Below are positions 22,546-64,000 of a stretch of 64,000 nt of DNA, one piece after another. Position 1 is the first letter of the stretch. Every line of letters starts with the position of its first letter. The DNA is from an uncultured delta proteobacterium (lineage in GTDB: Bacteria > Myxococcota_A > Polyangia > Fen-1088), in the NCBI GenBank assembly GCA_963767925.1, contig CAVYGB010000002.1, forward strand, positions 2,048,001 through 2,112,000, read 5' to 3'. The position numbers were made by a program, and so were the translations under genes. A model generated the notes under the pieces. It was given only the letters and a program-made list of their open reading frames with translations. It was not told where the DNA came from and made no database searches.

Positions 22546-22566
22546 CCGCGGGTCCGGTGCCGGTGT

Positions 22567-27449: not shown

Positions 27450-27545
27450 AAGCGGTGGCCCGCCCGTGGGCGCGGGCTGCCCGGCGCCGCGATTCCGTTT
27501 TCGGCCCGCGGGGAGGGGGCGGTCGCGACCCCTCCGTCCGGCGGG

Positions 27546-49113: not shown

Positions 49114-49633
49114 ATCGTCTGTTCCACCAAAGAATTGGTGCCCAAAAGCCCCAACCCCGCCGCGAGGTGCGCCGATGTACCGCCGCCGCTGCCGCCCGGA
49201 GCCCGACTCCAGGTGCGGTGGTGTACCCGGCGCCGCTGCAGCTCAAAACCGAAGGCCGGCTACACCAGGCGGCGATGTGCTCGCCCGCCGCACCCACCCG
49301 CCGTCTCGCGTCTCCCGACCGTTGCTTTGCCTTCGGCTCTGCGGATCGAACAAGCGCCCGCGATCCGCTCGCTTCGCCATGCTCGCGAGGGTTACGCTTC
49401 AATCAGACCTACCTGAGTGCGCTTCCGCGGAAAGATCACGGCTGACCGCCTGCCTCCGGCGTCCGGCGATCGAGGATGCCGGCTGACGGGTGGGCAATCA
49501 GGCCATTCCTCCGCCGAGCTCGGAGGAGATGAGCCACAAGGGACGAGGGCTGCGCGAACGGTCCAACACTCGACGCTGGGGATCGCGTCACAGGCCATAA
49601 AAAGCACAGCTGTAGAATCTTATTTGACGCTGC

Positions 49634-49649
49634 CTGAACGTTTGTATAG
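49634..49649. promoter_or_regulatory. Putative myxobacterial LexA (SOS) box within a sigma70-like promoter
   Basis: The reverse complement CTATACAAACGTTCAG fits the Myxococcus xanthus LexA consensus CTRHAMRYBYGTTCAGS at all but two degenerate positions. It lies between TTGACG (49624) and TATAGT (49645). Confidence 0.6.
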
Positions 49650-49658
49650 TCTTGCGAT

Positions 49659-50190
49659 GTGGCGACAGCGGATGAGCTGGCCGACGAGATCGCTTCCCTC
49701 GCTTACGCCAAGGTCCGGGCGCTGACCCGCGTCGCCACCCCCGAAAAACGAGCAGCGCCTCCTCGATCTCGCCAACCACGCGACCGGCGCCCAGCTCGAG
49801 AAGATCTGCCGGGCGTACCCGGCAGGTAGCGAGCTCCTTGCTGGAGGAGGGCCGCTGGTCGAAGAACGTTCGGTGTACGAGCGCCTTCACCCCGGCGGCA
49901 TGGTCCGTCTCGAGCTGGTGCTCCATCCCGGCGAGGCGGCGCTGGTTCGCCAGGCAATCGATAAGGCACGCGACGGCTTGCGTGAACGCCGTCGGAGCGA
50001 AGCCCACCCGATCGGTGTCGTGCCTGCCCAGGCCGGTCCCGGTGAACGGTCCGACGCCCGAGCTTCCTCCGTTTCGCCGGATGTGCCGGACGCCGGCACC
50101 GTTGCTGGATCGGCGGTACCCGGGGCCACCCGCTTTCTCCACAGCCACCACGTGCAGCACTGGATGGCCGGCGGCGAGACCAAGCTGAGC
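49659..50190 (+). pseudogene. DUF222/HNH endonuclease remnant
   Basis: Fragments ELADEIASL, YAKVRALTRVATP, EQRLLDLANHATGAQLEKICRAY and HSHHVQHWMAGGETKL, with frameshifts and internal deletions. Confidence 0.75.
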
Positions 50191-50231
50191 GCAACCAATC
50201 CCCGCCGCCCAGCAGATCGTGAACGCCCAGG

Positions 50232-50390
50232 AGAGTCACCTTCGCACCCCGACGCGACAGCCAGGCCGAGACGTACGCCGTCCCATACCCGAACTCGACG
50301 ACATCCTTGCCATCCAGGTCGTCGGGCAAGATATGAAGCTCGGTCTCGGGAACTGCGAAGATGCCCCACGTGATCTCGTCGGTAGCCCCG
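50232..50390 (-). pseudogene. N-terminal fragment of a class I SAM methyltransferase
   Basis: ITWGIFAVPETELHILPDDLDGKDVVEFGYGTAYVSAWLSRRGAKVT (motif I), then truncated. Confidence 0.65.
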
Positions 50391-50693
50391 GCTCGGCGGC
50401 CAGCAGGGCAAGGTGATCTACGACGGCTCTTCGATTTCTAGCCAGCAGTTCGGTTGCCGCAATTGGCAGCAGCCCAAGGCCATCAGGATCGCCCGGTCCC
50501 CGCCGCGGACCTCAGCCGTACCGGAAGCAGGTCGAGGCCAAGGCGCGGAACATGAGCGTCGGTCTCGGCCGCCGCTTTTTGCGCTAGTGCGTCCCAATGT
50601 CCATCAGGGCATCTTGGCCAAGCAAATTCGGGAGATCTGTTTCGTCTTCCGGATAGGTGGCGCCATCCTGGCCAGGATTCAAAGGGAGGTCAT

Positions 50694-51998
50694 TTGCTAA
50701 AAGAGGATGCAATCGTGACTATCCAGGGTGAGTGTTCCCTTGATGGGGACGCCATCCCTGCAGCCTCTGTCGATGCATCACTTCTGCGCTATCCGAAGGA
50801 AGCGAGTGAACGGCACGGAGCGGACGGTTACCGGCGGCGAGGTTTCGACCTCACGCCCGCTGCGACAGCTCACCGTCACTCGACGCGCATATCTGGGGCG
50901 GCCGACCGCATCCGAGATTGGTTGCTGAGCGACGAAGTGCAGATCCGCGGCGGCGATCACGATGGCGGCGTGCTGGGATGGGTCTCGAAGAACATGGAGG
51001 AACGCTTCGTGTATCCCGAGATCATGGGCTACTACCTGACCGGGCTGGCTTTTGTCGCCGAAGAAGACGGCCGCTGGGCTGATCGCTGCGCTGAACGCGC
51101 CGGCCGCGCTCTGGACTGGCTGCGTCGCCGTCGGGGAGGGTGGCTGACCCGGCACTACCTGATGTCGTCGAGCAACAAAGACTGGAGGAACTGCGCCGTC
51201 TTCAGTTTCGACCTGGGAATGCTCCTGGGAGGCATCGGTCACTGGGTCCCTTCGCACGAAGTCGGTGCTCGGGCTGCCGAGATACAGGCGGTCGTGCTGA
51301 GAGAGCTCGACTTGATATCGCCCGTCCGCGGCTTGCTCGGTTCCCACACTCTCCGGGCGGGCCACGATGAGCAGGCCTTGCCTCGTCGCTGGTCCACGGT
51401 GCCCGGGCCCCACCATGTCAAGGTCGCGGCCAACGTCGATCTGAGTCGGCCTGCACACCCTCGGCTGCTGGCGCTCGCGGAACGAACCAGGGAGCACTGG
51501 ACCAACATCATGGCCGCAGATCACGGGTCGATAGAGGTGCACCCGGTCCTGTACTTCTTGGAGGGTCTGGTGCTGCACGCGAGTGCCACGGCCGGAGAGT
51601 TACCCCTTGACCTGTTGGATGCCATCCTGTCCCGGATCCTCACCGGCCAGCATGCAGAGGGCGATCTGGCCGAGCGAGCCAACCCGCGTGGCGGGTTGCG
51701 CCGTGCGGATGTGACGGCACAGGCGCTGAGGTTGTGCGCGATCATCCTCGCGCGGAACAAGCGGCCGGGACACGGCACGCTGCCGGGTCAAGCTCGGAGC
51801 CTGTGCGCCGCGCTCCTGGATCGCTACCTCCACGAGGGCGGCGGGGTGACCAGCTTCCCTTCCCGCGACGACGGCAGCGGCGCGGGAAATCCACCCAACG
51901 TTTGGACGACAATCTTCAGCTATCAGGCGCTGCGACTGTACGAGTCCGTGCTCCGTCGGGCGGTGGTGCCGCCGGCGCTGGTCCGGCTCCTGGCTTGA
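50694..51998 (+). CDS. Hypothetical protein, probable alpha/alpha-toroid fold
   Basis: YPEIMGYY, FSFDLG, RWS..PGPHH.K, HPVLYFLEGL, RADVTAQALR, NVWTTIFSYQAL in a repeating helical pattern. First gene of the operon. Start uncertain. Confidence 0.55.
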   Translation: MLKEDAIVTIQGECSLDGDAIPAASVDASLLRYPKEASERHGADGYRRRGFDLTPAATAHRHSTRISGAADRIRDWLLSDEVQIRGGDHDGGVLGWVSKNMEERFVYPEIMGYYLTGLAFVAEEDGRWADRCAERAGRALDWLRRRRGGWLTRHYLMSSSNKDWRNCAVFSFDLGMLLGGIGHWVPSHEVGARAAEIQAVVLRELDLISPVRGLLGSHTLRAGHDEQALPRRWSTVPGPHHVKVAANVDLSRPAHPRLLALAERTREHWTNIMAADHGSIEVHPVLYFLEGLVLHASATAGELPLDLLDAILSRILTGQHAEGDLAERANPRGGLRRADVTAQALRLCAIILARNKRPGHGTLPGQARSLCAALLDRYLHEGGGVTSFPSRDDGSGAGNPPNVWTTIFSYQALRLYESVLRRAVVPPALVRLLA

Positions 51999-52031
51999 CG
52001 CCGGTCTGACGAGGCTCCACGCGGACCTGAG

Positions 52032-53198
52032 ATGAAACTGCTATTCATTGCCGAAAAGTATCCTCCCATCGTGGGGGGTGGTGAGACCCAGCTGGAGCAA
52101 CTGGCGACCTCGTTGGTGTCGCTGGGTCACCAGGTCACGGTCGCCACCGACCGGGAGGGAGTGGGAGCCGCGCCCGACCCTCGGGGCGTGCGTCTGGTCC
52201 ACCTGGCCGGGCTGCGCCGCGCTTGCAGCAGCCTGGACTGCCACCAGGCCGTCCAGAGCATCTCCAGATTGCTGGCCAGCGAGGCGCCCGACGCCCTTCA
52301 CGTGGTCAACTATGTCCCCGCCCTGCTGCTCAGCTGGTTGCGCCCAGCAATCCGGGTCCCGCTGCTCTTCTCGAGCTTCGAGACGCTCATCCCCGCTCAG
52401 CGGGTGTTCGGGTTGTATGAGGATTTCCCGCTGGAGGATACCCTGCGCCGCTCGGTGGCGACGCGGCTGGTCCCGGACATCGTGTTCTGTGGATCCGAGG
52501 CGTATCGCCAGTGGGCGCTCGCGGGCGGGTTCGACCCAGACAGGCTGCGTGTCATCCCGCACTCCACCGACGTGGAGCGGTTCGCCTTCTCCGCCGACGC
52601 CCGGGCCAGCGGACGCAAGCGCCGGGGTTGGAGCCCGTCGGATTTCGTGTTCCTGGTCCCCGCTCGACCGATTCCGCGCAAGCGGATCGAGGACCTGCTG
52701 GCCGCGGTCTCCCGCCTACCCGGCCGGCGACGGCCCAAGGTAACGCTCACCCTTCCGGCCGCGCGGGGCGATGGGGCGTATCTGGATCGCCTGCGCGCGC
52801 AGATAGCGCGTGAGCACCTGGAAGACGTCGTCCATTGGGAACCGGACCTGGCCTGGACCGACATGCCTGCCCTGTACAGCGCTTGCGACGCGGTCGTGCT
52901 CCCCTCCGCCAGGGAAGGGTTTGCCATCGCGCTCATCGAAGGCATGGCGGCATCCCGGCCGGTGATTGCCACCGACATAGAGGGTCCGAATGAGTTCGTC
53001 GTCCATGGCGTCACGGGCCTGCTCTATCAAGCGGGAAATGTCGGCCAGCTGGCCGAGCTCTTGGCCCGAGTCATGGAGACCGACACTTCGGCCATGGCGG
53101 AGACGGCTCTGGCCATGACCAGGGAGCGCTACTCGGCGGGTGCGATGGCCCGTCGCTTCGCGGACGTCTATCAGGAGGCCTGTCGTGCCGGGCGCTGA
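52032..53198 (+). CDS. Glycosyltransferase family 4
   Basis: YPPIVGGGE, ARPIPRKRIE, VLPSAREGFAIALIEGMA, GVTGLL. Confidence 0.9.
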   Translation: MKLLFIAEKYPPIVGGGETQLEQLATSLVSLGHQVTVATDREGVGAAPDPRGVRLVHLAGLRRACSSLDCHQAVQSISRLLASEAPDALHVVNYVPALLLSWLRPAIRVPLLFSSFETLIPAQRVFGLYEDFPLEDTLRRSVATRLVPDIVFCGSEAYRQWALAGGFDPDRLRVIPHSTDVERFAFSADARASGRKRRGWSPSDFVFLVPARPIPRKRIEDLLAAVSRLPGRRRPKVTLTLPAARGDGAYLDRLRAQIAREHLEDVVHWEPDLAWTDMPALYSACDAVVLPSAREGFAIALIEGMAASRPVIATDIEGPNEFVVHGVTGLLYQAGNVGQLAELLARVMETDTSAMAETALAMTRERYSAGAMARRFADVYQEACRAGR

Positions 53199-54075
53199 GA
53201 AGGTCACCGCCGGAACGCTGGCGCCAGCTAGCGGGATGGCCGTCGCCTTGTGCGTCGACGCCAAATACGTGACGGGCGCCGCGGTGACTATCGCCTCCCT
53301 CGCCGGGCACACCCCATCGCCCCTTCACATCTGGGTGCTACACGGGGGACTGGGAGACCCCGAGCTCGACCTGCTGAGACGCGCGGCCGACCTCGGCGGT
53401 GCGACCCTCCACCTCCGGACGATGTCGCAGCGAAAGATCGATCTGCCGGTTCGCTCGGACTACATCAGCACCGCCACGTTCGGTCGCCTCCTGCTCGCCG
53501 AGGCCCTGCCGTCCACCCTGAGCCGCGTCCTCTACCTCGATTGCGATCTCCTGGTGACTGGAGATCCGAGCGGGCTCTGGCAGACGGATCTGCGTGGTGC
53601 CGTCCTGGGCGCCGTGCCCGAGGCGACGACCGGCGTGGCCGGCACGCCCCGCACCTACGAACATCCGCAGGACCCGAGGCTGGACCCCGCGGATCCCTAT
53701 TTCAACGCCGGCGTTCTCCTCATCGACCTGGCGATGTGGCGTCAAAAGCGGGTCGGCGAGCGCGCGATCGCCTACATCCGGCGAAATCGTCCGCCCTTGA
53801 TGGATCAGGATGCGCTCAATGCCTGCCTGGTGGGCCGCTGGCTGCCGCTCGACCGCGCCTGGAACGTGACCACGTTCTGGTTCCGCTGCCGGAGTCGCCA
53901 GCGCCGCTACCGCGCGCTCCTGGCCCGAGCCAAGATCGTACATTTCGTGGGGCACCGGAAGCCCTGGCTCCGTGCCGACGTCTGGATGGGCCAGCGATGG
54001 CATCGACATCTGCGCACGCTGGGCGGCGAGGCGAGGCCCGCGCTGGCGGAGATGCAGCTTGGGCCGGCGCGATGA
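53185..54075 (+). CDS. Glycosyltransferase family 8
   Basis: TFGRLLL, LYLDCD, YFNAGVLLIDL, DQDALN, HFVGHRKPW. AGGAGG before GTG 53185. Confidence 0.92.
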   Translation: MPGAEKVTAGTLAPASGMAVALCVDAKYVTGAAVTIASLAGHTPSPLHIWVLHGGLGDPELDLLRRAADLGGATLHLRTMSQRKIDLPVRSDYISTATFGRLLLAEALPSTLSRVLYLDCDLLVTGDPSGLWQTDLRGAVLGAVPEATTGVAGTPRTYEHPQDPRLDPADPYFNAGVLLIDLAMWRQKRVGERAIAYIRRNRPPLMDQDALNACLVGRWLPLDRAWNVTTFWFRCRSRQRRYRALLARAKIVHFVGHRKPWLRADVWMGQRWHRHLRTLGGEARPALAEMQLGPAR

Positions 54076-55844
54076 ACATCCTGCAGTATGCTCGGACCTC
54101 TCCGCATTGCGCGCCCTGGCGCGCCGGTCGCCCGGTCTGGCCGGTCACCAGCGACGATGACCTGCTGAGCTTGAGGGCCACGGCGACCCTCTTCGGCGCC
54201 CGCCTCGAGCAGGTGGAGCCCGATCGCCTGTCGAGCGCGGCGGCTGCGTCCGAGTCTGGCGGATCGCTCGTCATGTATCCGGACCCTCGTCTGTCCGAGC
54301 TGGCCGGGCTCTATGCCCACCTGACCTCGCGGACGGCGATCCAGCTCCCGCTGGCCGAGGTGTCGCGTGCGCTGCCCGACCTCGTCGTCTGCCTGTGGGA
54401 GCACCTGTCGCTGGATCTCCTGGGCGACATTCACCGGGCGTGTCTGGAACGGCCGCTGGGCCTGCTGGTCGCCCCTACCTTGGGTGAGCTTCGCGAAAGG
54501 TTGATCCGTGCCGCCGCCGCGGCGTCGCTGGAGCCGCCCGAGCGGGGGGCGATCCTGGCGGTGCACGGCTCGGACGCGGGACCCCGAGCGAGAGCGCACT
54601 CTGGCGAACCTTCCGGGCTGGGGGCGCTGCTGCACCAGGGACACAGCGACGGGCTCGATCTGAGCTTCGGCCCTGGCGAGGTTCTCTGCGACGTCCGCCG
54701 ACAGATGGTTGGCGGAAGGTCTGGGGCGGCCGCGTTGCCCTGCGTCCAGCGCGGGCATTGCTATCGGCTCGACCAACCGCTGTCGTCCGCACTGACGGGC
54801 GGCCGCTTGCTTGCCCCCAGCGATCTCCGGGCGCGGGCGGCGGTCTTCCTCACCTGCTTCGGTGTCTCCACGAGCGACGCTCTCGTCCCGCCGTCCTGGT
54901 CATTGCTGGACGGCTTGCTTGCCTCGCCGTCACTGGGCTGTGTCGCCACCGCGTTCGGTGTCTCCCTCCCGGACCGTACAATCATCGAGGCGCTGACCCG
55001 TGGGCTGAGCGAGGGGCACACCATCGGGCAAGTGCTCTATCAGAACTCCGAGCTACCCTCCGGTGCCCGGGAGCGCTGTCGGCTGTTGCTGTTCGGCGAT
55101 CCTCGCACGCGCCCGCTCCGACCGGCTCCGGTAGTTCAGGGGCAGGTCCGGCCCAGCCCATCTCGTGGCCAGGGAAATGGGAATGAGCCGACCGGGATGC
55201 CTGCTGTGTGGACGACCGGCAGCCGCGCCGGGTTCCTGCTCGACCTCGTCGTCTTCGCGGGCACCCGATCGCCGGGATTGATCGACCGCCTGTCCCGCTT
55301 CGCCGCAGAACACAGCTCGAACCCGCCGGGTGATGACGCCTTCGCACGTCTTCTCGACGGGCTCGCGCCGCTGTGGGACCACTGGCCCGCTCTCTGCGGT
55401 CGCCCCCGCCACGTGCTGGATACGCCCCTCTGTCCGGGGTGTGGCAGAGCCGGTGATAGTTTTCGCTTCGACCTCAGCCAGGCGGGCAGCTCCCGGGTTC
55501 TCAGTACTTGTGCCCGCTGCGGCGTCTTTCGAGACATCGAGGGGGACTCCGCGCTGGCGGCTTTGCCCCCCCGGATCTGTCAGGGCGTGGTCGAGATCCC
55601 CGATGAGGTATCCGACGGCTGGGTGATGCTGAAGTACCGGGACCAGCGGAAGAAATCAACCTACTGGGCGCTCGCCCCCGCCCGGGAGCGCCGGCAGGTC
55701 ATCGTGCCAGCTCCCGCCCGGGTGAAGGCGGGTGCTGGCCTGGCAATCTTGATCGTCATCTATCTACGCAAGTTCGAAATGGCCGGCTGGCAATTCGCAC
55801 TGCACGTCGCAGAGAGTGAGGAGGACAACGGTGCTGAGAACTGA
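54072..55844 (+). CDS. Putative caspase-hemoglobinase-fold (C25/CHAT-like) protein with C-terminal zinc ribbon
   Basis: LLHQGHSDG, AVFLTCFG, GHTIGQV, LLLFGDP in the order seen in clan CD proteases. CPGC...CARC near the C-terminus. ATGA coupling to GT8. Confidence 0.5.
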   Translation: MNILQYARTSPHCAPWRAGRPVWPVTSDDDLLSLRATATLFGARLEQVEPDRLSSAAAASESGGSLVMYPDPRLSELAGLYAHLTSRTAIQLPLAEVSRALPDLVVCLWEHLSLDLLGDIHRACLERPLGLLVAPTLGELRERLIRAAAAASLEPPERGAILAVHGSDAGPRARAHSGEPSGLGALLHQGHSDGLDLSFGPGEVLCDVRRQMVGGRSGAAALPCVQRGHCYRLDQPLSSALTGGRLLAPSDLRARAAVFLTCFGVSTSDALVPPSWSLLDGLLASPSLGCVATAFGVSLPDRTIIEALTRGLSEGHTIGQVLYQNSELPSGARERCRLLLFGDPRTRPLRPAPVVQGQVRPSPSRGQGNGNEPTGMPAVWTTGSRAGFLLDLVVFAGTRSPGLIDRLSRFAAEHSSNPPGDDAFARLLDGLAPLWDHWPALCGRPRHVLDTPLCPGCGRAGDSFRFDLSQAGSSRVLSTCARCGVFRDIEGDSALAALPPRICQGVVEIPDEVSDGWVMLKYRDQRKKSTYWALAPARERRQVIVPAPARVKAGAGLAILIVIYLRKFEMAGWQFALHVAESEEDNGAEN

Positions 55845-57348
55845 AAATGGAGGCTCCCACTCCGTCGACGAGCTCGATCTGGGCCGCGGAGACGCCGCCG
55901 AGCCCTCGTCAGCCCTGGAGAGCGAGACCCAACTGCTGCGGGAATGGGGCCGAGAGCACCTGTGGATGCAGGGCGAGCGGGCCAACGATCTGCAGGCCAA
56001 GAATCGTTACCACATCATCGTTCGCGGCGAGGGCTGCTACATCTACGACATCGAGGGCAGACGCTTCATCGATGGCAACGCCAGTGGCTTCGTCAAATCC
56101 ATCGGCCACGGCCGGCCCGAGATCCGCGAGGCGGTCGCCGCCCAGCTGTCCCGGCTGAGCCACACTCCAAATTCCTTCGGCCAAGCGACCGTGCCCGCCA
56201 TCCAGCTGGCCAGGAAGCTGGCGGAGCTGACACCGGAGCCATTGCACCGGACGTTCTTCTGCACGGGTGGCAGCCACGCCATCGAGGTTGCCGTGCAGCT
56301 CGCTCGTCAGTGGCAGCAGATTCGGGGTCAGACGCGCAGGTTCAAGATCATCTCCCGACGTCCCGACTACCATGGCTCGACCTACGGTGCGATGAGCCTC
56401 GGCTCCCGGACCGATCTGAACCACAGCCTGTTCGAGCCGCTCATGCCCGGGGTGGTCCAGGTCGAGGCACCCAACTGGCTGCGCTGCCCCTGGGGCCATC
56501 GGGACGCTGGCGCGGACGGGTGCTGCGATCTCAGCATCACCAGCCTCCGCCAGACAATCGAGGGCGAGGGGGCGAATACCATCGCGGCGCTCGTGGCGAC
56601 GCCGTTCCGGGTGGGCGGCTCGCTGCCGCCCAGGGACTACTGGCCGCAGGTGAAGCGTCTCTGCGAGGAAAACGGCATCGTGCTCATCGCGGACGAGGTG
56701 ACGCTGGGCCTGGGGCGACTTGGTAGCTGGTTGGCGCTGGAGCGCTTCGGTGTCGTTCCGGACATCGTCGCCTTCGGCAAGGGGCTCACGAGCGGAGAGC
56801 TGCCGGTGGGTGCCGTCATGGCCAGCCGAGAAATCGCCGGAGCTTTCGACAGCGCCCCGCGTGCCGTGGGAAAGTTCAACCACGGATCCACGTTCGGCGC
56901 GCATCCGGTGGTGATGGCGGCCGCCCTGGAAAACCTCCGCATCATCGAGAGCGAGGGGTTGCTGGACAACGCGAACCTGATGGGCACCCATCTGTATCGT
57001 CGTCTGCTCGAGATCCAGGAGCGACACCCGAGCATCGAATATGTGTCAGGGGGCCTGGGCCTGCTAGCGAGCCTCTCCATCGTGCGCAACCGTGCCACCC
57101 GAGAGCGGTACCCCGGCGGTACGGAAGGCCCCGCGCTCACCCGTCTGGCGCAGGCGGTACGCGCCGGGGGCCTCTCCCTTCGCGTCAGCAACACGATCAA
57201 CATCAGCCCGCCCCTCACTGTGACGCGGGCGCTGGTTGACGAGATCGTCGACGTCCTCGATCGCGCACTGTCCGAGATGGAAGAGGCCTTCCCACCCGAA
57301 GCCCCGACCGGACCGTTGTCCCCCAACCCGACTGCTGGAATGTCATGA
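55831..57348 (+). CDS. Class III PLP-dependent aminotransferase
   Basis: RGEGCYIYD.EGRRFID, IGHGR, GGSHA, YHGST, LIADEV.LGLGR, PDIVAFGKGLTSG (PLP Lys), HGSTFGAHP, SPPL. Confidence 0.93.
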   Translation: MLRTENGGSHSVDELDLGRGDAAEPSSALESETQLLREWGREHLWMQGERANDLQAKNRYHIIVRGEGCYIYDIEGRRFIDGNASGFVKSIGHGRPEIREAVAAQLSRLSHTPNSFGQATVPAIQLARKLAELTPEPLHRTFFCTGGSHAIEVAVQLARQWQQIRGQTRRFKIISRRPDYHGSTYGAMSLGSRTDLNHSLFEPLMPGVVQVEAPNWLRCPWGHRDAGADGCCDLSITSLRQTIEGEGANTIAALVATPFRVGGSLPPRDYWPQVKRLCEENGIVLIADEVTLGLGRLGSWLALERFGVVPDIVAFGKGLTSGELPVGAVMASREIAGAFDSAPRAVGKFNHGSTFGAHPVVMAAALENLRIIESEGLLDNANLMGTHLYRRLLEIQERHPSIEYVSGGLGLLASLSIVRNRATRERYPGGTEGPALTRLAQAVRAGGLSLRVSNTINISPPLTVTRALVDEIVDVLDRALSEMEEAFPPEAPTGPLSPNPTAGMS

Positions 57349-58346
57349 ACACCATCGCCACCCCACGCCGCACCGGATTTGGTCCCTCGCCCTTCACGAT
57401 GGGGACCTGGCCCCTCAGCGGGAGCGGGCACTACGGGGAAGTCGACGAACGGGAAGCCATCCACACCATCCACGCCGCCCTCGAGGTCGGGGTGACCAGC
57501 TTCGATACCGCGCCCGGATATGGGCAGGGCTATGCCGAGAGCCTGCTGGGAGCCGCCCTGGAGGGACGTCGAGACCGGGCGATCATCACCACCAAGTTCG
57601 GCCTGATCTCCGGTCGCGATCGCCACAGCGGCCGGGCCTCCATGCTGGCCGAGATCGATCAAAGCCTGAAACGTCTCCGCACCGACTACGTCGACTACTA
57701 TGTCGGGCACTGGCCAGACCCAGTCACCCCGCTGGAAGAGACCATGGGGGCGCTCGACGACATAGTGCGTGCGGGCAAAGCGCGACGGGTGGGGCTCTCC
57801 AACTACACCCTCGAGCTGGTGCAGCGATGTCGAGCCATTCGCCCCATCGATGTGGTCCAGGTCGGATACAGCCTCTTCGACCGGCGCATGGAGTCGGACC
57901 TGTTTCCCTACTGCCTGGAGCACGGAATCGCCATCATGACCTACGGCCCGCTGGTCCACGGGTTGGTGATTGATGGGATCAGCGAGGACACCACTTACCC
58001 GGCCAGCGACTGGCGCGCCAAGGGATGTGCAATGGGCCAGCCGTTGTTGACCCGGGAGAACCTTTTGCACAACGCTCGGGTCGTTCGCCGCCTGCGTGAG
58101 GAAGTGGCCCGACCCAAGGGTATGACCGTCTCGCAGCTGGCGCTCAGCTGGGTACTTGACCACCCGGCCGTCACCACCGCGCTGGTAGGCGCGCGCAACC
58201 GGTCGGAGCTGCGGGAGGACGTGGTCAGGCCCACCCCCCTCGGCCCCGCCGATCGGGACCAGATCGAGGAGATCATGGCGGGCGCGCGGGGGCGCGTGAA
58301 AGTCTTCCGTCCCTACGGTCGGGCTCGCGAGGACTGGAGCCAGTGA
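57345..58346 (+). CDS. Aldo/keto reductase
   Basis: MGTWPL, FDTAPGYG, TKFG, SLKRLRTDYVD, HWPD, GLSN, YSLFDR, QLALSW. Confidence 0.93.
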   Translation: MNTIATPRRTGFGPSPFTMGTWPLSGSGHYGEVDEREAIHTIHAALEVGVTSFDTAPGYGQGYAESLLGAALEGRRDRAIITTKFGLISGRDRHSGRASMLAEIDQSLKRLRTDYVDYYVGHWPDPVTPLEETMGALDDIVRAGKARRVGLSNYTLELVQRCRAIRPIDVVQVGYSLFDRRMESDLFPYCLEHGIAIMTYGPLVHGLVIDGISEDTTYPASDWRAKGCAMGQPLLTRENLLHNARVVRRLREEVARPKGMTVSQLALSWVLDHPAVTTALVGARNRSELREDVVRPTPLGPADRDQIEEIMAGARGRVKVFRPYGRAREDWSQ

Positions 58347-59107
58347 TGGAAGCACGACTAGACGGCGGGCGGGACACCACGAACGACTATCTTTTCGATG
58401 CCTGCGGGTATCTGAGGCACCGGAGCCATCTCGACGCCGCGAGAGTGGCCCAGCTCCTCGAAGCGCTGGCGCCGCGCTGGGAGACCACCACCAGCGTCGG
58501 CACCGAACGCGTCCGTAGCCTGGTTGGCGTCTCGGATCGTTTCGTCGACCTGGCCAATCACCTCGCGCGCGACATGCAGGTCCAGCGCTACATCAACCAG
58601 CCGTACCGGCTGATCGAGAGCTACGGGTTGCGGCGTATCGCAGGCACGTCGTTGCCTCTGCACAATGGTTTCAGCCAGCGCCAGGTGTCGGTGACCGGCG
58701 ACAGCTCTTCGCGCTCTATGTGGAGACACCACACGTATCACGATGGCAAGACCTACTGCATGATGGTCAAGATCCTGCTTTACCTCACCGACGTGGCGAC
58801 GGAAGGGGACGGCCCCTTCTGTTTCGTGGAGGGATCACACAAGGCCAACTTTGCCTTGCCCATTCCGGGTCCGGAGGTCAATGCGTCCCTGGCCCAGCAG
58901 GTGCTTCCCAACGTGCGGGCGCTACCGGTGCTGGCGGGCGACGTTGTCGTCCTGAACGAGGCGCTGATGCACGGGACGCTCATCAAGACCACCAGCGCGC
59001 CGCGTGTGGTCCTCGCCTTTTCCTACGCCCCGCGTTTCGTGGCGGACTATGACGAGACGTCGGGTCCGGCCCTCCCCGCCGGCTCCGGCACCGGATTTTA
59101 TCCCTGA
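58346..59107 (+). CDS. Fe(II)/2-oxoglutarate enzyme, PhyH-like
   Basis: PLHNG, YLTDV...DGPFCFVEGSHKANF, AGDVVVLNEALMHGT, PR. Confidence 0.85.
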   Translation: MEARLDGGRDTTNDYLFDACGYLRHRSHLDAARVAQLLEALAPRWETTTSVGTERVRSLVGVSDRFVDLANHLARDMQVQRYINQPYRLIESYGLRRIAGTSLPLHNGFSQRQVSVTGDSSSRSMWRHHTYHDGKTYCMMVKILLYLTDVATEGDGPFCFVEGSHKANFALPIPGPEVNASLAQQVLPNVRALPVLAGDVVVLNEALMHGTLIKTTSAPRVVLAFSYAPRFVADYDETSGPALPAGSGTGFYP

Positions 59108-59124
59108 CCCGCGGAGGCCCAGCC

Positions 59125-59814
59125 ATGGACGACCAGGCGCTGGCCGGTCCGGATCACATCGAATCCTGGCTGCGATCCCGGAGTGAGCCGGTGCTGCTGA
59201 TCGACGCCGGGGGTGTCATTTTCAACAACGTCATCGAGAGCTCCCCGTTCATGCTGGAGCTTGCGGTCAGATACCGAGTAGACGTCCAGGCGTTGCGGGC
59301 GGCCTACACCGCTCGCGACGTGTCCTTCGAGACCAACCTGGTGGGGGTGCATCGCGTCCTGTCAGATTGTCTGGAAGGCCTGGGGTGTGGCCCCCTGGAC
59401 CCCCCGGCCTTCGCGTGGATCGACGACCAGTACCGGGCGTCGGTGATCCCCGATCGCGGACTGCTCGCGGCGCTGAGATCGGCACGGGCGGCCGGTAAGA
59501 CCCTGGTCCTGGCCAACAACGAAGCGGAGGCCTGGGATCGAATCAAGGACCGAGCGTTCGGCCACTTCGACCTGTTCGATCACCTTGCTTGCTCCTGGCG
59601 GCTGGGGGCTTGCAAGCCCACTCCGGCGTATTTCGAGCAACTCGACAGGTTGCTCTACCCCCAGCCGCGTTTCAACTGGCACCTGCTGGATGACAATCCA
59701 GCGGTGGTCGCCCAGGCCCACGCGATGGGCGTGGGCGCCACCCGCTACCAGTCGCGACCGGGACCGGTTCGCCCGCAATCCCCAGGCGATTGCGAGGCTC
59801 GTTCGTATGGCTGA
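59125..59814 (+). CDS. HAD-superfamily phosphatase (YihX-like)
   Basis: Motif I LIDAGGVIF, LANN, SWRLGACKP, LLDDNP. Confidence 0.8.
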   Translation: MDDQALAGPDHIESWLRSRSEPVLLIDAGGVIFNNVIESSPFMLELAVRYRVDVQALRAAYTARDVSFETNLVGVHRVLSDCLEGLGCGPLDPPAFAWIDDQYRASVIPDRGLLAALRSARAAGKTLVLANNEAEAWDRIKDRAFGHFDLFDHLACSWRLGACKPTPAYFEQLDRLLYPQPRFNWHLLDDNPAVVAQAHAMGVGATRYQSRPGPVRPQSPGDCEARSYG

Positions 59815-60802
59815 GGGGCTCCACTCCGAGCGAACGCGGGGCTGGCGGACACGCCTCGAAGCGCGCCGGGCGGCCGAGCCACCCCCGCCCATGCCCACGC
59901 GGGAGCAGATAGGCGCGGTCATCGCCCGGCACCGCCTCGACATTCAGGGAGAGGACACAAGACCCCTGCCTGCGATCGGCACCGTCAACCGCGCCTTGGC
60001 CCTCGGGCAGCGGTACGTGTTGCGGATCCCCAAGCCCACCGGCGCTGCGGAGACGCGCACCGAATCGGTCGCCGCTCCTGCCGCGAAGGCGGCGGGCCTG
60101 GCTACGCCGGCCCTGCTCGTCTACGACGATGCCTGCGACATCTTCACGGTGCCGTACACGGTCTTCGAGCGGGTCGAGGGCGAAAATTTCGGCCTATTCG
60201 ACCTGGAGTCCGGCGTGTCGGCGCAGATCTATGAGAGCCTCGGCCGGCAACTCGCTACCCTGCACCAGGCGGTCATGCACTGCCCGGACCCGCTGGGCTA
60301 TCTGGCCCGACCACAGCGAGCGGACCCGGTGGACCTCCTCGAACACCTGGGGTCCGAGGCGTTCCTCAGCCGCCACAACCTCGCCTGGCTGTCGCGCGTG
60401 ATCGCGCGCTTACGACCGGCAGTCGCCGAGGCCGCTCCCTACAGACGTTTTCTGCACAACGACCTGCTCGCGACCAACGTTCTGGTCCGCGACGGGAAGC
60501 TCGCGGCGATCATCGATTGGAATGCGGCCGGGTGGGGTGACCCGGCGCTCGAGTTCTGGGCGTTTCCCAGTCGCATCTTCCCCTGCGTCCTGGAGGGTTA
60601 CCAGCAGGTGGCCGGCATCGACGGAGCCGAGACACTGCCCGAGCGGATCCTCTGGGATCACCTCTGCCTGGCTCTGGAATCCCTGCTCGCCCCGCCCGAG
60701 AAGGGAAATCTCAGCTGGGGAACGCCGCCCTTCGCCCGTCTGGTCGAGATCCTGGCGATGGCGGCCCAGTATCAACCCTGGCAGTTGCTCCTCCGCCCGT
60801 GA
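59807..60802 (+). CDS. Aminoglycoside phosphotransferase (APH)-family kinase
   Basis: GTVN, YVLRIP, VFERVEG, FLHNDLLATNVL (HxDxxxxN), IIDW..AGWGDPALE. Confidence 0.85.
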   Translation: MAEGLHSERTRGWRTRLEARRAAEPPPPMPTREQIGAVIARHRLDIQGEDTRPLPAIGTVNRALALGQRYVLRIPKPTGAAETRTESVAAPAAKAAGLATPALLVYDDACDIFTVPYTVFERVEGENFGLFDLESGVSAQIYESLGRQLATLHQAVMHCPDPLGYLARPQRADPVDLLEHLGSEAFLSRHNLAWLSRVIARLRPAVAEAAPYRRFLHNDLLATNVLVRDGKLAAIIDWNAAGWGDPALEFWAFPSRIFPCVLEGYQQVAGIDGAETLPERILWDHLCLALESLLAPPEKGNLSWGTPPFARLVEILAMAAQYQPWQLLLRP

Positions 60803-61938
60803 CCGCCACGATGTCCCCTCGCGCGGCGCAGCCCTCGTCCCGGCCCCCGCCCTCGGCGGCGGACGCTAGGAGGTCGACGGGAAGGCCCCACATTCACCTG
60901 ATCAATTCGCTGCAGGGCCTGGGGGGCAGCGAGCTGCGGACGATAGACCTTTACCGCGAGCTAGGGAAAGAGGCCGACGTCGAGCTATGGAGCGAACAGG
61001 TCCCCGGCGCAGCCTTCGCCGATCTGCCTATCCGGCAACTCGACGCCGACCGGGGCTGGTTCCCACGGGACGGGACCCTGCTGTTCGTCGGTGTCTATTA
61101 CGCTCCGGTCGGTCCCTGGATCCGGTACGCCGCTGCCAGCCGGGTGATCATCGTTTACAATACCTTTGCCATAGCCAAGCTGGCCGGGCTGGTCAACCAG
61201 GTGCGGGCGGCCGGCTTGCCAGCTCCGGAGATCGTCTACACCTCGACTCTGGTGCGAACGACGGTCGAGAAGCCCGAGCGGTTCGCCGCCGCACCGCCCG
61301 ATCTGCTCGAAGCCTGCGCCGCTCTCCGGAATAGTATCGCTCCCCGGAGCGTCGTTCACCCATCGCCGATCGCCATCGATCGGTTTCTCGCCATTCCCCG
61401 CCGCGAGCGTCAGCCGGGCGCACCCCTGGTGGTGGGCCGCCACTCGCGCGATACCCTCGAGAAGTTTCACTCCGATGACCCGTCCTTGTTTCGCCGCCTG
61501 GCCGAGCAGGGCTTGCGCGTGCGGTTGATGGGCGCAACCTGCCTCGCCGATGAGATCGGCTCGACGCCCGGCATCGAGATCCTCCCCGTCGGCGCCGAGT
61601 CCCCGACCGAATTTCTCGCCAGCCTCGATGTGTTTCTGTATCGCGTCTCCTACGAGCGCTGGCTCGAGGCCCTGGGCCGGGTGATCCTCGAGGCCATGGC
61701 GGCTGGCCTCCCTTGCGTCTGCGAGCAGCGGGGCGGTCACGTCGAGCTCATCGAGCAAGGCACCAACGGCTTGCTGTTCCACCCTGCTCGCAGCGCCGAC
61801 GCGATCGCCATCATCGAGTACCTCCGCGACCACCCGGCGATAGGTCCCGCAGTTGGGGCAGCGGCCCGGCAGACGATCCGCGACCTCTACAGCCCCGCAC
61901 GTCGTCGGGAGACCCTGTCGTTCTATCTCGGCGGATGA
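60799..61938 (+). CDS. Glycosyltransferase family 4
   Basis: GGSELR, VGRHSRD..EK, EALGRVILEAMAAGLP, GTNGLL. Confidence 0.85.
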   Translation: MTATMSPRAAQPSSRPPPSAADARRSTGRPHIHLINSLQGLGGSELRTIDLYRELGKEADVELWSEQVPGAAFADLPIRQLDADRGWFPRDGTLLFVGVYYAPVGPWIRYAAASRVIIVYNTFAIAKLAGLVNQVRAAGLPAPEIVYTSTLVRTTVEKPERFAAAPPDLLEACAALRNSIAPRSVVHPSPIAIDRFLAIPRRERQPGAPLVVGRHSRDTLEKFHSDDPSLFRRLAEQGLRVRLMGATCLADEIGSTPGIEILPVGAESPTEFLASLDVFLYRVSYERWLEALGRVILEAMAAGLPCVCEQRGGHVELIEQGTNGLLFHPARSADAIAIIEYLRDHPAIGPAVGAAARQTIRDLYSPARRRETLSFYLGG

Positions 61939-62024
61939 AGCGGCGCCGAATGCCGCATTTTAGGACATGGCTGCACCCACTCGCGTCTCCTAGTGTTGAA
62001 GAAGTCAGGTGTTTTGGCGCTAGG

Positions 62025-62049
62025 CGGGCCCGAGCGAAGCGAGGGAACC
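62025..62049. repeat. Short dispersed repeat, copy 2 (MITE/REP-like)
   Basis: CGGGCCCGAGCGAAGCGAGGGAACC, the reverse complement of 16063-16087 with one mismatch. Confidence 0.55.
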
Positions 62050-62118
62050 GAATACTTCGAAAACAGTCCTTAGCCTGTTCGGCACCGACACCTGTTCGTC
62101 CTCGATCCGGAGGTGCCG

Positions 62119-62298
62119 ATGTCTTCCAGCCAGCAGAAATCGTCGCGGCAGCCCCCGACGACCGGGGAGCCGCGAGCGGAACCGCAAGACCAGAGCGGAT
62201 CCGGTTCAGGGAATGCTACCGAGCCTTCTGAGCGGCGGCTCAAGGAGACGCTGGAGAAGCTGAAGAAGGAGGACCCCAACATCTATCCGATCTTCTAG
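62119..62298 (+). CDS. Small protein ending LEKLKKEDPNIYPIF
   Basis: GGAGG before ATG. Polar, disordered N-terminus and a helical basic C-terminus with a DP.IY motif. Confidence 0.7.
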   Translation: MSSSQQKSSRQPPTTGEPRAEPQDQSGSGSGNATEPSERRLKETLEKLKKEDPNIYPIF

Positions 62299-62306
62299 GG
62301 TCCCTG

Positions 62307-63176
62307 ATGAGCATGAGTCCCCCAGTTTCACTGCGCCCCTACGACGGCGGTAGCCTCCCCATGCCGGCCAACGCCGGCAAGAGCTTCGATCGATATGGAG
62401 TCGATCAGAGCGGCCGGGTGACCTACTCGTTCAACGGACTGGGTTTCCGGAGCGAGGAGTACGCGCCTCGGGCGGCCCGCCACATCTTCGTCGCCGGGTG
62501 CAGTCACAGCTTTGGCCTGGGCATCCCGCTCGCGCAGTCATGGCCCAACTGCTTTCGCGCGTTGTATTGCCAGCGTCATGGTCTGCGCGAGGAGCAAGTG
62601 AATCTCCTGAACTTCTCGTCCGTGGGCGCGTCCAACCGCTATATCACGCGGACCATCCTGGCCCAATGCGAACGCAGGCGACCGGACCTGGCGTTGGTTC
62701 AGCTCACCCACAAGAACCGGATGGAGAACGTCATCGAGGGGCGGGGCTTCAATATTCTCCCCACGATACTCCGATCGGACAACCGGGCCACCTTCAGCAT
62801 GGGTGAAACGCAGGAAGTCCTTTTCACTCGCTTGCGAGAAGCCGCCCGGAGCTACTACGGCTTTTATACGGACGAGTTCGGGGGAATGGAGCTTCTGCTC
62901 AACCTTCTGCTGGTGCAACGGTACTTCGCCCATCGTCAGATTCCCTGCGTCTTCCTGTGCATCGACCCCCTTCCCGAGGTCCCGCTCCTGCGCCCCCTGG
63001 TCGAGATGGTCGACCATTCCTGCCTGAAGACCTTGCCGGGACCGATCTTCGAGTGCCTCGAGGACGTCGGAACCGTGGACCTGCATCCGGGGGCCCGCAC
63101 CTCCGCCCGGCTCGCGGCAGAGCTCTTCGAGGTCTACCAGCGCGTGCAAGGCGGATCGCCTGGCGTGTCCGCATGA
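62307..63176 (+). CDS. SGNH/GDSL-like hydrolase or acyltransferase
   Basis: NGLGFRSEE, AGCSHSFG (block I), NFSSVGASN (block II), DLHPG (DxH). Confidence 0.75.
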   Translation: MSMSPPVSLRPYDGGSLPMPANAGKSFDRYGVDQSGRVTYSFNGLGFRSEEYAPRAARHIFVAGCSHSFGLGIPLAQSWPNCFRALYCQRHGLREEQVNLLNFSSVGASNRYITRTILAQCERRRPDLALVQLTHKNRMENVIEGRGFNILPTILRSDNRATFSMGETQEVLFTRLREAARSYYGFYTDEFGGMELLLNLLLVQRYFAHRQIPCVFLCIDPLPEVPLLRPLVEMVDHSCLKTLPGPIFECLEDVGTVDLHPGARTSARLAAELFEVYQRVQGGSPGVSA

Positions 63177-64000
63177 CGGCGAGAGCTGTCATCCGGGAAG
63201 TTCTCTGGACCATCTTCTACTTCGGTATCGTCACCCCGATCGGTCTGCTCTGGCGGACGCTGATTCGACGTGATCCGCTCCACCTGCGCCGCTCCCGCTC
63301 ATCGACCTACTGGCGCAGCCGCCCGGCCAGCCTCGGCGGCGGCGTCCAGCGCGTGGTCCGGGTGCCAATCCGGTTGCAGCGGCGGGCCCGACGCGGGTGC
63401 GTTCTCGGGATATCGGCCTACTACCACGACAGCGGCGCCGCCCTGGTGATGGACGGTCAGGTGCGAGCCGCCGCTCAGGAGGAGCGTTTCACCAGGAAGC
63501 GGCACGACGCCAGCTTCCCTCACCGGGCCCTCTCGTATTGTCTTCAAGAAGCGGGGATCCAGCTGGCGGACGTCGACCAGGTCGTCTTCTACGAGAAGCC
63601 GATGCTGAAGCTCAACCGCCTGGCCGTGACCCATCTGGCGATCGCCCCACGGGGTCGGGAGTCCTTCCTCGCCGCGGCGCCGCTGTGGCTGGGGAGCAAG
63701 ATGTTCCAGCAACGGACCATCGGGCGCGAGCTAAGGCGCCTGGAGCCCAGCTTCGACGTGAAGCGACGACTGGTCTTCGTCGAGCACCATGCCAGCCACG
63801 CGGCCAGCGCATTCTTCCCGTCCCCCTTTTCCGAGGCCGCCATCTTGACCATGGACGGCGTGGGCGAGTGGGCTACCACGACCGCCGCTGTGGGGCGTGG
63901 CAATCAGATCGAATTTCTGGAGGAGATTCGTTTCCCGCACTCCCTCGGGCTCTTGTTCTCCGCCTTCACGGCCTACACGGGCTTCCGGGTGAACTCCGGA
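63173..64000 (+). CDS. SxtJ-like membrane segment fused in frame to a NodU/CmcH-family O-carbamoyltransferase (3'-truncated by the window)
   Basis: Translated by hand with no stop: IFYFGIVTPIGLLWR...DPLHLRR...STYW, then VLGISAYYHDS, AAQEERFTRKRHD, FYEKP, EHHASHAASAFFPSPF, LTMDGVGEW, FPHSLGL, GFRVNSG. Confidence 0.9.
   Translation, partial: MTARAVIREVLWTIFYFGIVTPIGLLWRTLIRRDPLHLRRSRSSTYWRSRPASLGGGVQRVVRVPIRLQRRARRGCVLGISAYYHDSGAALVMDGQVRAAAQEERFTRKRHDASFPHRALSYCLQEAGIQLADVDQVVFYEKPMLKLNRLAVTHLAIAPRGRESFLAAAPLWLGSKMFQQRTIGRELRRLEPSFDVKRRLVFVEHHASHAASAFFPSPFSEAAILTMDGVGEWATTTAAVGRGNQIEFLEEIRFPHSLGLLFSAFTAYTGFRVNSG

Follow-up and report, generated by a model that had tools for sequence, protein, structure and literature searches.

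HygX, an Fe(II)/2-oxoglutarate oxygenase represented by the structures 4xc9, 4xca, 4zpi and 4xcb, converts hygromycin C to hygromycin B through formation of an inter-sugar orthoester and has an unusual metal site (H-x-G...E-x3-H, plus Lys137); in excerpts of a review, oxygenases of this type are described for hygromycin B and orthosomycin-type metabolites only (PMC13374393). A gene for an enzyme of this kind lies in a block of 13 plus-strand genes at positions 50694-64000 of the stretch of DNA analysed here, 64,000 nucleotides (nt) from an uncultured delta proteobacterium (contig CAVYGB010000002.1, positions 2,048,001 to 2,112,000), referred to below as the window. The kanamycin, tobramycin, neomycin and butirosin clusters have GT4 glycosyltransferase, class III aminotransferase, Fe/2-oxoglutarate dioxygenase, reductase, APH-fold kinase and carbamoyltransferase as classes in common with the block, which the initial annotation had taken for an aminoglycoside-like pathway or a decorated glycan. 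The view of a foreign carbohydrate-tailoring operon was upheld, but membership of the aminoglycoside clusters was not: the operon is best described as a variant of the saccharide-type biosynthetic clusters and not as a member of the aminoglycoside ones.

G+C content at third codon positions (GC3) is 0.75-0.84 (mean 0.81) in the 13 open reading frames (ORFs) of the block and 0.90-0.98 (mean 0.94) in 14 backbone genes (Mann-Whitney p = 1e-5). The two ranges are disjoint, and the excess of A/T at third codon positions that had been noted from the sequence is therefore real. Total G+C, which is 0.70-0.78 across most of the length of the window, falls from 0.72-0.78 to 0.64-0.69 from approximately 49 kb to the window end. 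On sequence evidence, the block is a compositionally foreign, probably horizontally acquired, uncharacterised carbohydrate-tailoring operon; 10 of its 13 ORFs belong to carbohydrate- or small-molecule-tailoring families of Pfam and NCBIfam. It combines these enzyme families and a HygX-type active site with the shift in composition. The reading that we tentatively favour is a pathway, gained by horizontal transfer, whose product is a small non-cyclitol glycoside or pseudo-oligosaccharide that is aminated, carbamoylated and oxidatively cyclised, because the HygX-type enzyme is encoded together with three glycosyltransferases and a barrel protein of carbohydrate type, because the tailoring enzymes are of small-molecule kinds, and because no gene for polysaccharide assembly, export or nucleoside diphosphate (NDP)-sugar synthesis is found among the 13 ORFs.

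The ORF listing and exact look-ups of public proteins gave 12 ORFs of enzyme size and one of 59 amino acids (aa), in agreement with the at least 13 same-strand, mostly overlapping or abutting genes first described. The look-ups in the public collection returned reading frames already called as genes and set the starts of g03 (53185), g05 (55831), g07 (58346) and g10 (60811). With these starts, neighbouring genes overlap at 7 of the 12 junctions (by 1-14 nt) and are separated at the others, by 8-33 nt at 4 of them and by 180 nt at one (g10-g11). The operon continues past the window end at 64000, and all counts of gene content cover the 13.3 kb from 50694 to 64000. The features are as follows.

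49000..50693, no strand: left border zone of low G+C without a convincing gene (G+C 0.65; 0 of 8 ORFs with a Pfam match)
50694..51998, plus strand: g01, (alpha/alpha)6-barrel protein, carbohydrate epimerase/hydrolase-like (fold model)
52032..53198, plus strand: g02, GT4 glycosyltransferase (Pfam Glycos_transf_1)
53185..54075, plus strand: g03, GT8 glycosyltransferase (Pfam Glyco_transf_8)
54072..55844, plus strand: g04, 590-aa clan-CD (gingipain/caspase-fold) peptidase-like protein with C-terminal zinc ribbon and beta-sandwich (fold model)
55831..57348, plus strand: g05, class III (omega-type) aminotransferase (Pfam Aminotran_3)
57345..58346, plus strand: g06, aldo-keto reductase (Pfam Aldo_ket_red)
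58346..59107, plus strand: g07, HygX-type Fe(II)/2-oxoglutarate oxygenase (Pfam PhyH, PDB HygX)
59125..59814, plus strand: g08, HAD-like hydrolase, weak assignment (Pfam Hydrolase under cut-off)
59807..60802, plus strand: g09, APH-family small-molecule kinase (Pfam APH)
60811..61938, plus strand: g10, GT4-like glycosyltransferase with divergent N-terminal half (Pfam, C-terminal half only)
61940..61964, plus strand: weak terminator-like hairpin directly 3' of g10 (stem-loop)
62119..62298, plus strand: g11, 59-aa hydrophilic ORF with conserved C-terminus (ribosome-binding site, GC3, sister homologue)
62307..63176, plus strand: g12, 289-aa near-orphan, possibly SGNH-like (motif by eye)
63173..64000, plus strand: g13, carbamoyltransferase N-terminal domain with 76-aa hydrophobic N-terminal extension, cut by the window end (Pfam Carbam_trans_N)

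The HygX-type oxygenase and its companion enzymes

The product of g07 matches Pfam PhyH (35 bits), and its PDB matches at E <= 10 are HygX chains only (4xc9, 4xca, 4zpi and 4xcb; 5.9e-39, 137 bits, full length). Aligned with the HygX site, it has H107-N-G109, K143 and E206-x3-H210 (253+1 numbering, 254-aa reading); both the variant iron site and the equivalent of Lys137 are kept. The assignment of this dioxygenase to the KanJ type was rejected, as no PDB chain other than those of HygX was matched at that threshold. Among 72,556 plasmids, g07 has one relative, the PhyH (HygX) gene of a hygromycin-type cluster on plasmid NZ_CP016083 of Streptomyces sp. SAT1, to which it is 38% identical. This cluster also encodes APH(7'')-Ia (at 95% identity), two DegT aminotransferases, a radical SAM protein, a SIS protein, a GT4 glycosyltransferase, a HAD protein and ABC exporters. 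When the 13 proteins of the block were compared with it by tblastn, g07 alone matched at E < 1e-5, the kinase reaching E 0.003 (27% identity). The likeness to hygromycin B and orthosomycin systems comprises the g07 site and its lysine, along with GT4, HAD-type and APH-fold genes that are common to both as classes, whereas the DegT aminotransferase, radical SAM protein, SIS isomerase, nucleotidyltransferase, N-methyltransferase and ABC exporter of the hygromycin-type cluster have no counterpart in the window. The hosts differ as well, Streptomyces for the hygromycin-type cluster and probably a member of the Myxococcota for this operon. The g07 protein is a predicted close functional look-alike of this aminoglycoside/orthosomycin enzyme and the operon's one specific link to a known pathway; by analogy, we infer that it would form an orthoester between two sugar units.

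Kinship with the aminoglycoside clusters, as first suggested, was not borne out, given that g05 is of the omega type, g09 lies below the cut-offs of the named APH families and a single protein of the 13 matches the hygromycin-type cluster. The initial observation that no 2-deoxy-scyllo-inosose synthase is visible was correct: none of the 13 ORFs (50694-64000) carries a cyclitol synthase domain. There is also no DegT/StrS-type aminotransferase among them, the only aminotransferase being of class III, and no self-resistance gene (named APH/AAC or 16S rRNA methyltransferase) was found, g09 falling far below the APH cut-offs. A further difference from the 2-deoxystreptamine clusters is that TobZ is only marginally ahead of GdmN and the novobiocin enzyme as a match for g13. 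The curated cut-off of a named NCBIfam family was reached by none of the 13 proteins, and none matched a defence system in PADLOC. A literature search for a myxobacterial aminoglycoside-like cluster gave nothing directly relevant; saskemycin, a carbamoylated glycoside, is unrelated according to excerpts of its description (PMC12637814).

The enzyme classes named initially (GT4, GT8, class III aminotransferase, aldo-keto reductase, PhyH, APH-family kinase, second GT4-like protein and carbamoyltransferase N-domain) were all recovered, and the (alpha/alpha)6 toroid protein was confirmed by the fold matches of g01. This protein has no Pfam or NCBIfam match, but its structural model (pLDDT 87.5) gave 110 PDB matches at E <= 1e-3 in Foldseek, to carbohydrate enzymes: the best are GH88 unsaturated glucuronyl hydrolase (2.3e-7) along with cellobiose 2-epimerase and other epimerases or isomerases of the AGE family (TM up to 0.64/0.70), and GH76 enzymes were matched as well. 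At E <= 1e-3, its family comprises 331 representatives. GC3 is 0.59 over the first 81 codons, and a 353-aa form exists in the public collection; the true start is probably near 50922-50937.

Three glycosyltransferases are encoded. The g02 protein matches Pfam Glycos_transf_1 (6.7e-31) and GT4 N-terminal domains, with E-x7-E at residue 295 and a borderline Pfam GT4-conflict match (27.6 against 26 bits); its best PDB matches are Alr3699 and the MshA-type chains 3c48 and 3c4q, and its NCBIfam matches are to exopolysaccharide (EPS) and PEP-CTERM-type families (at best 84 against a cut-off of 260 bits). The g03 gene, preceded by the ribosome-binding site AGGAGG, encodes a protein that matches Pfam Glyco_transf_8 (1.1e-46), with D-x-D at residue 134 of the 311-aa reading; LgtC is the best PDB match (1.6e-17) and a lipopolysaccharide (LPS) 3-alpha-galactosyltransferase the sole NCBIfam match (67.9 against 461 bits). 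In g10, Pfam covers residues 238-373 only, with E-x7-E at residue 290, and the N-terminal 234 aa have no match at E <= 10. The g10 protein weakly matches a pterin glucosyltransferase, and with the named LPS/EPS families it scores 51.6 bits against a cut-off of 400. Its plasmid relative is a Lichenihabitans glycosyltransferase of 944 aa, encoded beside heptose-pathway genes, with whose C-terminal module it has 32% identity. Plasmid searches with g01, g09 and g12 gave no match.

These glycosyltransferases are also what a strain-variable locus for decoration of a cell-surface glycan (LPS core/O-antigen or EPS) might contain, a serious rival that we nevertheless consider somewhat unlikely. The three enzymes would then extend a lipid-linked or lipid A-core glycan, g13 would carbamoylate it at the inner membrane, and the kinase, aminotransferase, reductase and phosphatase would make an amino-alcohol or amino-sugar substituent. 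Surface-glycan loci are usually of lower G+C and strain-specific; GT4, GT8, kinase and carbamoyltransferase genes occur together in LPS core loci, and capsule decorations can use aminotransferase/phosphatase pairs. The block resembles LPS core, O-antigen and EPS loci in having these four classes, a G+C below that of the backbone and a strain-specific distribution. The LPS-type NCBIfam match and LgtC for GT8, the EPS and PEP-CTERM-type matches for GT4, the g10-like module beside heptose-pathway genes, the predicted N-terminal membrane segment of g13, the low G+C of the block and the host, probably a Gram-negative myxobacterium, all speak for such a locus. However, the machinery of surface polysaccharides is missing from the 13 ORFs (no Wzx/Wzy flippase or polymerase, ligase, ABC exporter, initiating transferase or NDP-sugar gene), and the glycosyltransferase scores lie far under the curated cut-offs (68 against 461 bits for GT8; 84 against 260 or less for g02). 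Unlike LPS and EPS loci, the operon also has HygX-type, omega-transaminase, aldo-keto reductase and clan-CD proteins, and no family match above cut-off; in the excerpts of PMC13374393, oxygenases of the HygX type are described for orthosomycin-type metabolites only, and relatives of g04 are found in peptide and secondary-metabolite clusters.

The aminotransferase g05 matches Pfam Aminotran_3 (2e-82), with the context FGK of the pyridoxal phosphate-binding lysine at residue 320, and its best PDB matches are omega- or putrescine transaminases, 6io1 (1.3e-84) and 6gwi; by sequence comparison it is placed with the amine:pyruvate omega-transaminases, which need no alpha-carboxylate. The g06 protein matches Pfam Aldo_ket_red (1.4e-67) and has the contexts that hold the D/Y/K/H tetrad; its best PDB matches are the AKR11-type YhdN/GSP69 and IolS, with MtmW also among them. 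The kinase g09 matches Pfam APH (2.1e-24), with H-x-D-x4-N at residue 217 and IDW at 236, but with named APH/Mph families and PDB chains it aligns over approximately 40 residues only, at E 1e-3 to 1e-4, and it remains below the cut-offs of named resistance families (APH(4)-Ia, 18 against 725 bits; Mph, 23 against 500 bits). Of the kinase/phosphatase pair proposed initially, the APH-family kinase stands and the other member is weakly assigned: the HAD-like g08 scores 26.1 bits with Pfam Hydrolase against a cut-off of 26.4, is below cut-off with NCBIfam HAD-IA and has no PDB match at E <= 0.1. Its motif I is D-A-G instead of the D-x-D of phosphatases, and it may not be a phosphatase.

Aminotransferase, oxidoreductase and HAD-type phosphatase genes are clustered also in the azasugar (iminosugar) GabT1/Yktc1/GutB1 cluster (Beal and Horenstein 2021; PMC8382821, in excerpts), and its logic, by which a sugar phosphate is aminated and dephosphorylated and its redox state adjusted, is plausible here. 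An azasugar core that arises as a cyclising aminopolyol from these three activities and is then extended by the glycosyltransferases would account for the adjacency of g05, g06 and g08 in the order reported for Chitinophaga and Paenibacillus clusters (excerpts of PMC8382821), but we regard it as improbable. In its best register g05 agrees with 5 of the 16 specified positions of the published consensus (SGNXFRXXXFPNX7LXVPXPYCXRC; PMC8382821, as excerpted), g06 is an aldo-keto reductase and not a GutB1-type dehydrogenase, and the HAD match is below cut-off with a motif I of the form D-x-G. The trio, which spans less than 4 kb, is interrupted by g07 and, unlike the azasugar cluster, is accompanied by genes for three glycosyltransferases, an oxygenase of the HygX type and a carbamoyltransferase.

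The clan-CD peptidase-like protein and the genes g11-g13

The initial annotation had listed a caspase-fold protein as an oddity. A gingipain-like fold match was found for g04, with modest support. The protein belongs to no Pfam family, 26 members of its family (41 proteins) give only weak zinc-ribbon signals, and none of these 26 matches Pfam Peptidase_C25 at E <= 1; a language-model search gave Peptidase_C25 as a lead (0.79). The structural model (pLDDT 86.4) has one PDB fold match at E <= 1e-3, to the gingipain RgpB (E 2.1e-4, prob 1.00, TM 0.30/0.40), followed in Foldseek by Kgp (3e-3) and, lower, by separase and SAVED-CHAT. The model modestly suggests that g04 has a caspase/gingipain (clan CD) fold. 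In an alignment of the family, C262 (in TCFG, after a beta-strand) is at least 90% conserved and LFGDPR and the four zinc-ribbon cysteines are invariant; the column of the candidate catalytic H191 (G-H-S-D-G) is His or Arg, and members with Arg have another His three residues earlier. The fold and a conserved Cys after a beta-strand are features of the gingipains RgpB and Kgp and of the PorU-type sortase (PMC4560394, excerpts), but g04 has an extra zinc ribbon and beta-sandwich and no sequence match to Peptidase_C25.

Five genomic loci were retrieved through the g04 family, the nearest relatives coming from metagenome-assembled genomes (MAGs) of Haliangiales and Kofleriaceae. Four of the five lie in clusters for ribosomally synthesised and post-translationally modified peptides (RiPPs) or in other biosynthetic clusters, a setting that had not been considered previously. 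In three loci from Myxococcota (L001-L003), a sigma-54 activator and a radical SAM enzyme are encoded next to the g04 homologue, and there are small ORFs with NHLP-like double-glycine leaders and short Cys-containing cores. L001 and L003 have, directly downstream of the homologue, a second, in-frame leader of the NHLP-like kind whose short, Pro-rich core has Trp as its last residue; genes for OEP, HlyD and an ABC exporter with a C39 peptidase come next. These apparent RiPP clusters include the stretches 5285-5632 and 11655-13175 in L001, 5138-5707 in L002 and 5189-5551 and 11752-13392 in L003; L001 also has a DUF7005 protein. L002 ends inside the g04 homologue, and its downstream genes are outside the locus. 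In a Planctomycetota MAG (L004, 358-11457), an APH-family kinase, an A-T-TE protein, PhyH, a B12-radical SAM protein, a 2-oxoglutarate oxygenase and a phosphopantetheinyl transferase are encoded near the homologue, and in an Acidobacteriota locus (L005) a radical SAM gene is directly upstream of it. The neighbours indicate that the family is a companion of peptide and other biosynthetic clusters. The window differs from L001-L003, where relatives of g04 stand beside leader peptides (with C39 exporters in L001 and L003), in that g04 is among sugar enzymes and without RiPP maturases; other genes of the operon were found in none of the five loci. The plasmid search with g04 gave one unannotated match (28%) beside fragments of nonribosomal peptide synthetase genes in Rhodococcus, which is uninformative, and the literature search gave nothing directly relevant on clan-CD proteins in RiPP pathways.

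The small gene g11, which is annotated in public records and was absent from the initial annotation, has GGAGG 6 nt upstream and a GC3 of 0.78. It belongs to no Pfam or NCBIfam family, and its sole homologue is in the sister genome, with 46 of 55 aligned residues identical and an in-frame 4-residue indel. The last 16 residues are identical, all 9 substitutions and the indel lying within the first 43; at a background divergence of approximately 8%, this pattern suggests conservation of the C-terminus but is not significant. A lanthipeptide was considered and rejected because g11 has no Cys, and an N-glycosylation sequon in g11 was discarded because it is not kept in the homologue.

The g12 protein has no Pfam or NCBIfam match at E <= 10. 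By eye it is possibly SGNH-like, with G-C-S-H-S-F-G at residue 64; among 5.8 billion clusters it has, besides its own entry, one 31% identical relative with the same motif, and a 93% identical sister copy is inside the window's own 90% cluster. From residue 77, g13 matches Pfam Carbam_trans_N (2.1e-51), and its best PDB match is TobZ (4e-22), with GdmN and the novobiocin enzyme close (1e-18 to 1e-17). The preceding 76-aa extension (63173-63400) has a GC3 of 0.83, similar to that of the remaining gene, and includes 19 consecutive residues with a mean hydropathy of 1.5; it has no family match at E <= 10. Small membrane proteins (SxtJ-like) that may resemble this extension are encoded beside carbamoyltransferases. 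The C-terminal motif of g11 may be like that of small proteins of the saxitoxin type (the sxtK kind). A literature search on DUF5989/SxtJ yielded nothing directly relevant. The saxitoxin genes sxtI-sxtJ-sxtK-sxtL, as given in excerpts of PMC2679770, combine a carbamoyltransferase with a very small ORF (sxtK, 165 bp; g11, 180 bp), a small membrane-type protein of no assigned role (sxtJ, comparable to the g13 extension) and a GDSL-type protein (sxtL, comparable to the G-x-S-H motif of g12). The likeness is in gene sizes and order only: g11 is hydrophilic, and g11, g12 and the extension have no Pfam or NCBIfam matches at E <= 10. It nevertheless offers a more ordinary role for g11.

Another use of g11 would be as precursor or scaffold of a ribosomal peptide with a glycan, in which g04 releases or transfers the conserved C-terminus (Asp-Pro...aromatic) and the other enzymes then hydroxylate, phosphorylate, glycosylate and carbamoylate the peptide. 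This we hold to be doubtful. The ribosome-binding site of g11, the frame kept across the indel in the sister genome and the unchanged last 16 residues are what would be expected of it, as are the gingipain-like fold and at least 90% conserved Cys of g04, the pairing of g04 homologues with radical SAM enzymes and double-glycine leader peptides in 3 of 5 loci (L001-L003) and the radical SAM gene of L005. In NCBIfam, g05 also weakly resembles a daptide aminotransferase (232 bits) and g09 weakly resembles LxmK (30 bits), but these scores are under the cut-offs (450 and 315, respectively) and no better than generic family scores. No class-defining RiPP maturase (radical SAM, YcaO or LanB/C/M), leader-recognition protein or peptide exporter is present among the 13 ORFs, g11 has neither a double-glycine leader nor a Cys, and an unchanged run of 16 residues is not significant when the divergence is about 8%. 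Moreover, the sister genome has no 50-100% identical copy of g04 in the length range searched, the substrates indicated by g01 and g07 are carbohydrates, and the likeness to the saxitoxin module gives g11 a more mundane role.

PorU and GPI transamidase act as transpeptidases in their own systems. By analogy, g04 could be a transpeptidase that cleaves g11 and joins its conserved part to a transaminase-installed amine on a HygX-cyclised, carbamoylated oligosaccharide, and the operon would then make a peptide-oligosaccharide conjugate by a route undescribed for natural products, which seems to us highly improbable.

Distribution, borders and neighbouring genes

Conserved co-occurrence of the operon genes in other genomes, which had been named beforehand as a test, is known in exactly one close relative. 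In this sister genome, whose contigs reach up to 46 kb, 9 of the 13 genes are found at 84-95% identity: g02, g03, g05, g06, g07, g08, g09 and g12 at 89-95% and g11 at 84%. Copies of at least 90% identity were not found there for g01, g04 and g10, and g13, being cut by the window end, was left out. For g04, no copy at 50-100% identity was found in the sister genome in the length range searched, and its next-best relative anywhere is 51% identical and lies on a contig that differs in length.

At the left border, the last backbone gene before the block encodes a Ser/Thr kinase (48094-48999, minus strand, GC3 0.90). The pseudogene scar described initially at 49.0-50.7 kb was not substantiated, as none of its 8 ORFs matches Pfam at E <= 1 and a search of the plasmid collection with its DNA was negative; methyltransferase-like and HNH-like stretches were recognised there by eye alone. 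The G+C of this zone, 0.651, is the second-lowest 2-kb value in the left half of the cluster region, windows at 61-64 kb being lower. Neither a tRNA gene nor an integrase was seen in the window, which does not reach the right border; thus the shift in composition is what stands of the earlier term island-borne.

Directly 3' of g10, the hairpin at 61940..61964 has a 6-bp G+C-rich stem and a 5-nt loop, followed by AUUUUA, and is under the criteria of the terminator scan; the g10-g11 gap as a whole folds no better than shuffles (z = 0.57). Because of the 180-nt gap and this weak terminator-like hairpin, the block may be two transcription units, possibly g01-g10 and g11-g13 onward. Promoter and terminator scans were at or under shuffle expectation, the two upstream regions compared have no common 9-mer, and Rfam gave no match in the whole window.

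Elsewhere in the window, a second low-G+C patch (21000-23000, 0.66) adjoins genes for a Bac_transf initiating sugar transferase (20962-21786, minus strand) and a PMT_2 glycosyltransferase (19449-20999, minus strand), and may be a separate envelope-glycan locus; the Bac_transf gene is 30 kb from the operon and has backbone composition. A phosphoenolpyruvate carboxylase gene (42918-45600, minus strand) is frameshifted near 44.4 kb, with residues 1-400 of the Pfam profile in one frame (44401-45600) and 403-919 in another (42918-44642); the GC3 signal changes frame at the same point, and either the gene is a pseudogene or the assembly has an error. The protein of 1657 aa encoded at 31098-36068 (plus strand) is cysteine-rich and repetitive, with MopE, Stig1 and PKD domains, and matches the NCBIfam MXAN_6577-like cysteine-rich family (211 against a cut-off of 100 bits). 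This match and the Haliangiales and Kofleriaceae origin of the nearest g04 relatives make a host within the Myxococcota probable. There are also two large AAA_16-domain proteins (3093-6644 and 24411-27545), the first with a below-cut-off match to a TOMM kinase/cyclase fusion family.

A possible pathway and its significance

In the glycoside pathway that we tentatively favour, the AGE/GH88-like barrel protein g01, the APH-family kinase g09 and the HAD-like g08 would prepare a free sugar or sugar phosphate. The omega-type transaminase g05 would aminate a sugar carbonyl and the aldo-keto reductase g06 would adjust the product, after the logic of azasugar, kanosamine and serinol pathways. Two or three sugars would be added by g02 (GT4), g03 (GT8) and g10 (GT4-like) from uridine diphosphate-sugars of primary metabolism, and g07 would forge an extra C-O link between neighbouring sugar units, as an orthoester or by a related oxidative cyclisation. 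The membrane-anchored carbamoyltransferase g13 would O-carbamoylate the product, with g12 and g11 as accessories of the carbamoylation module; the role of g04 is left open.

The order of the aminotransferase, oxidoreductase and HAD genes, which is that of the Chitinophaga-type azasugar cluster (excerpts of PMC8382821), supports this pathway. Several points weigh against it. No scaffold-forming enzyme (cyclitol synthase or NDP-sugar pathway), exporter, regulator or resistance gene is found in 50694-64000, the matches to the hygromycin-type cluster at E < 1e-5 amount to 1 of 13 proteins, and synteny comes from one close relative only, with 0 of 5 g04-homologue loci containing other operon genes. 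The azasugar comparison itself is imperfect: g05 has 5 of the 16 consensus positions, the oxidoreductase is an aldo-keto reductase and not GutB1-type, and the HAD-like g08 is below cut-off, its motif I being without the second Asp. The best matches of the GT8 and GT4 enzymes are of the LPS/EPS type, and among plasmid proteins g10 is closest to a module of a glycosyltransferase of the polysaccharide type. To our knowledge, a membrane anchor on a carbamoyltransferase is untypical of soluble secondary-metabolite enzymes such as TobZ. Finally, g04 and g11 are without an explanation in such a pathway.

If the block served a surface glycan instead, it would be a variable glycan locus of the ordinary kind, apart from a few unusual tailoring enzymes, and if it made a peptide-oligosaccharide conjugate, a peptidase family associated with RiPPs would be joined to sugar chemistry of the orthosomycin type in a myxobacterium. 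If the favoured glycoside pathway is correct, the unannotated family of g04, with its gingipain fold and zinc ribbon (41 proteins), would gain a first context, that of biosynthetic genes in 4 of 5 loci. In that case, HygX-type oxidative cyclisation would extend beyond the orthosomycins of actinomycetes, a probable myxobacterium would have a saccharide-type pathway without a detectable relative among the named families, and the operon would point to a new class of polar glycoside, for example a ribosome- or glycosidase-directed compound.

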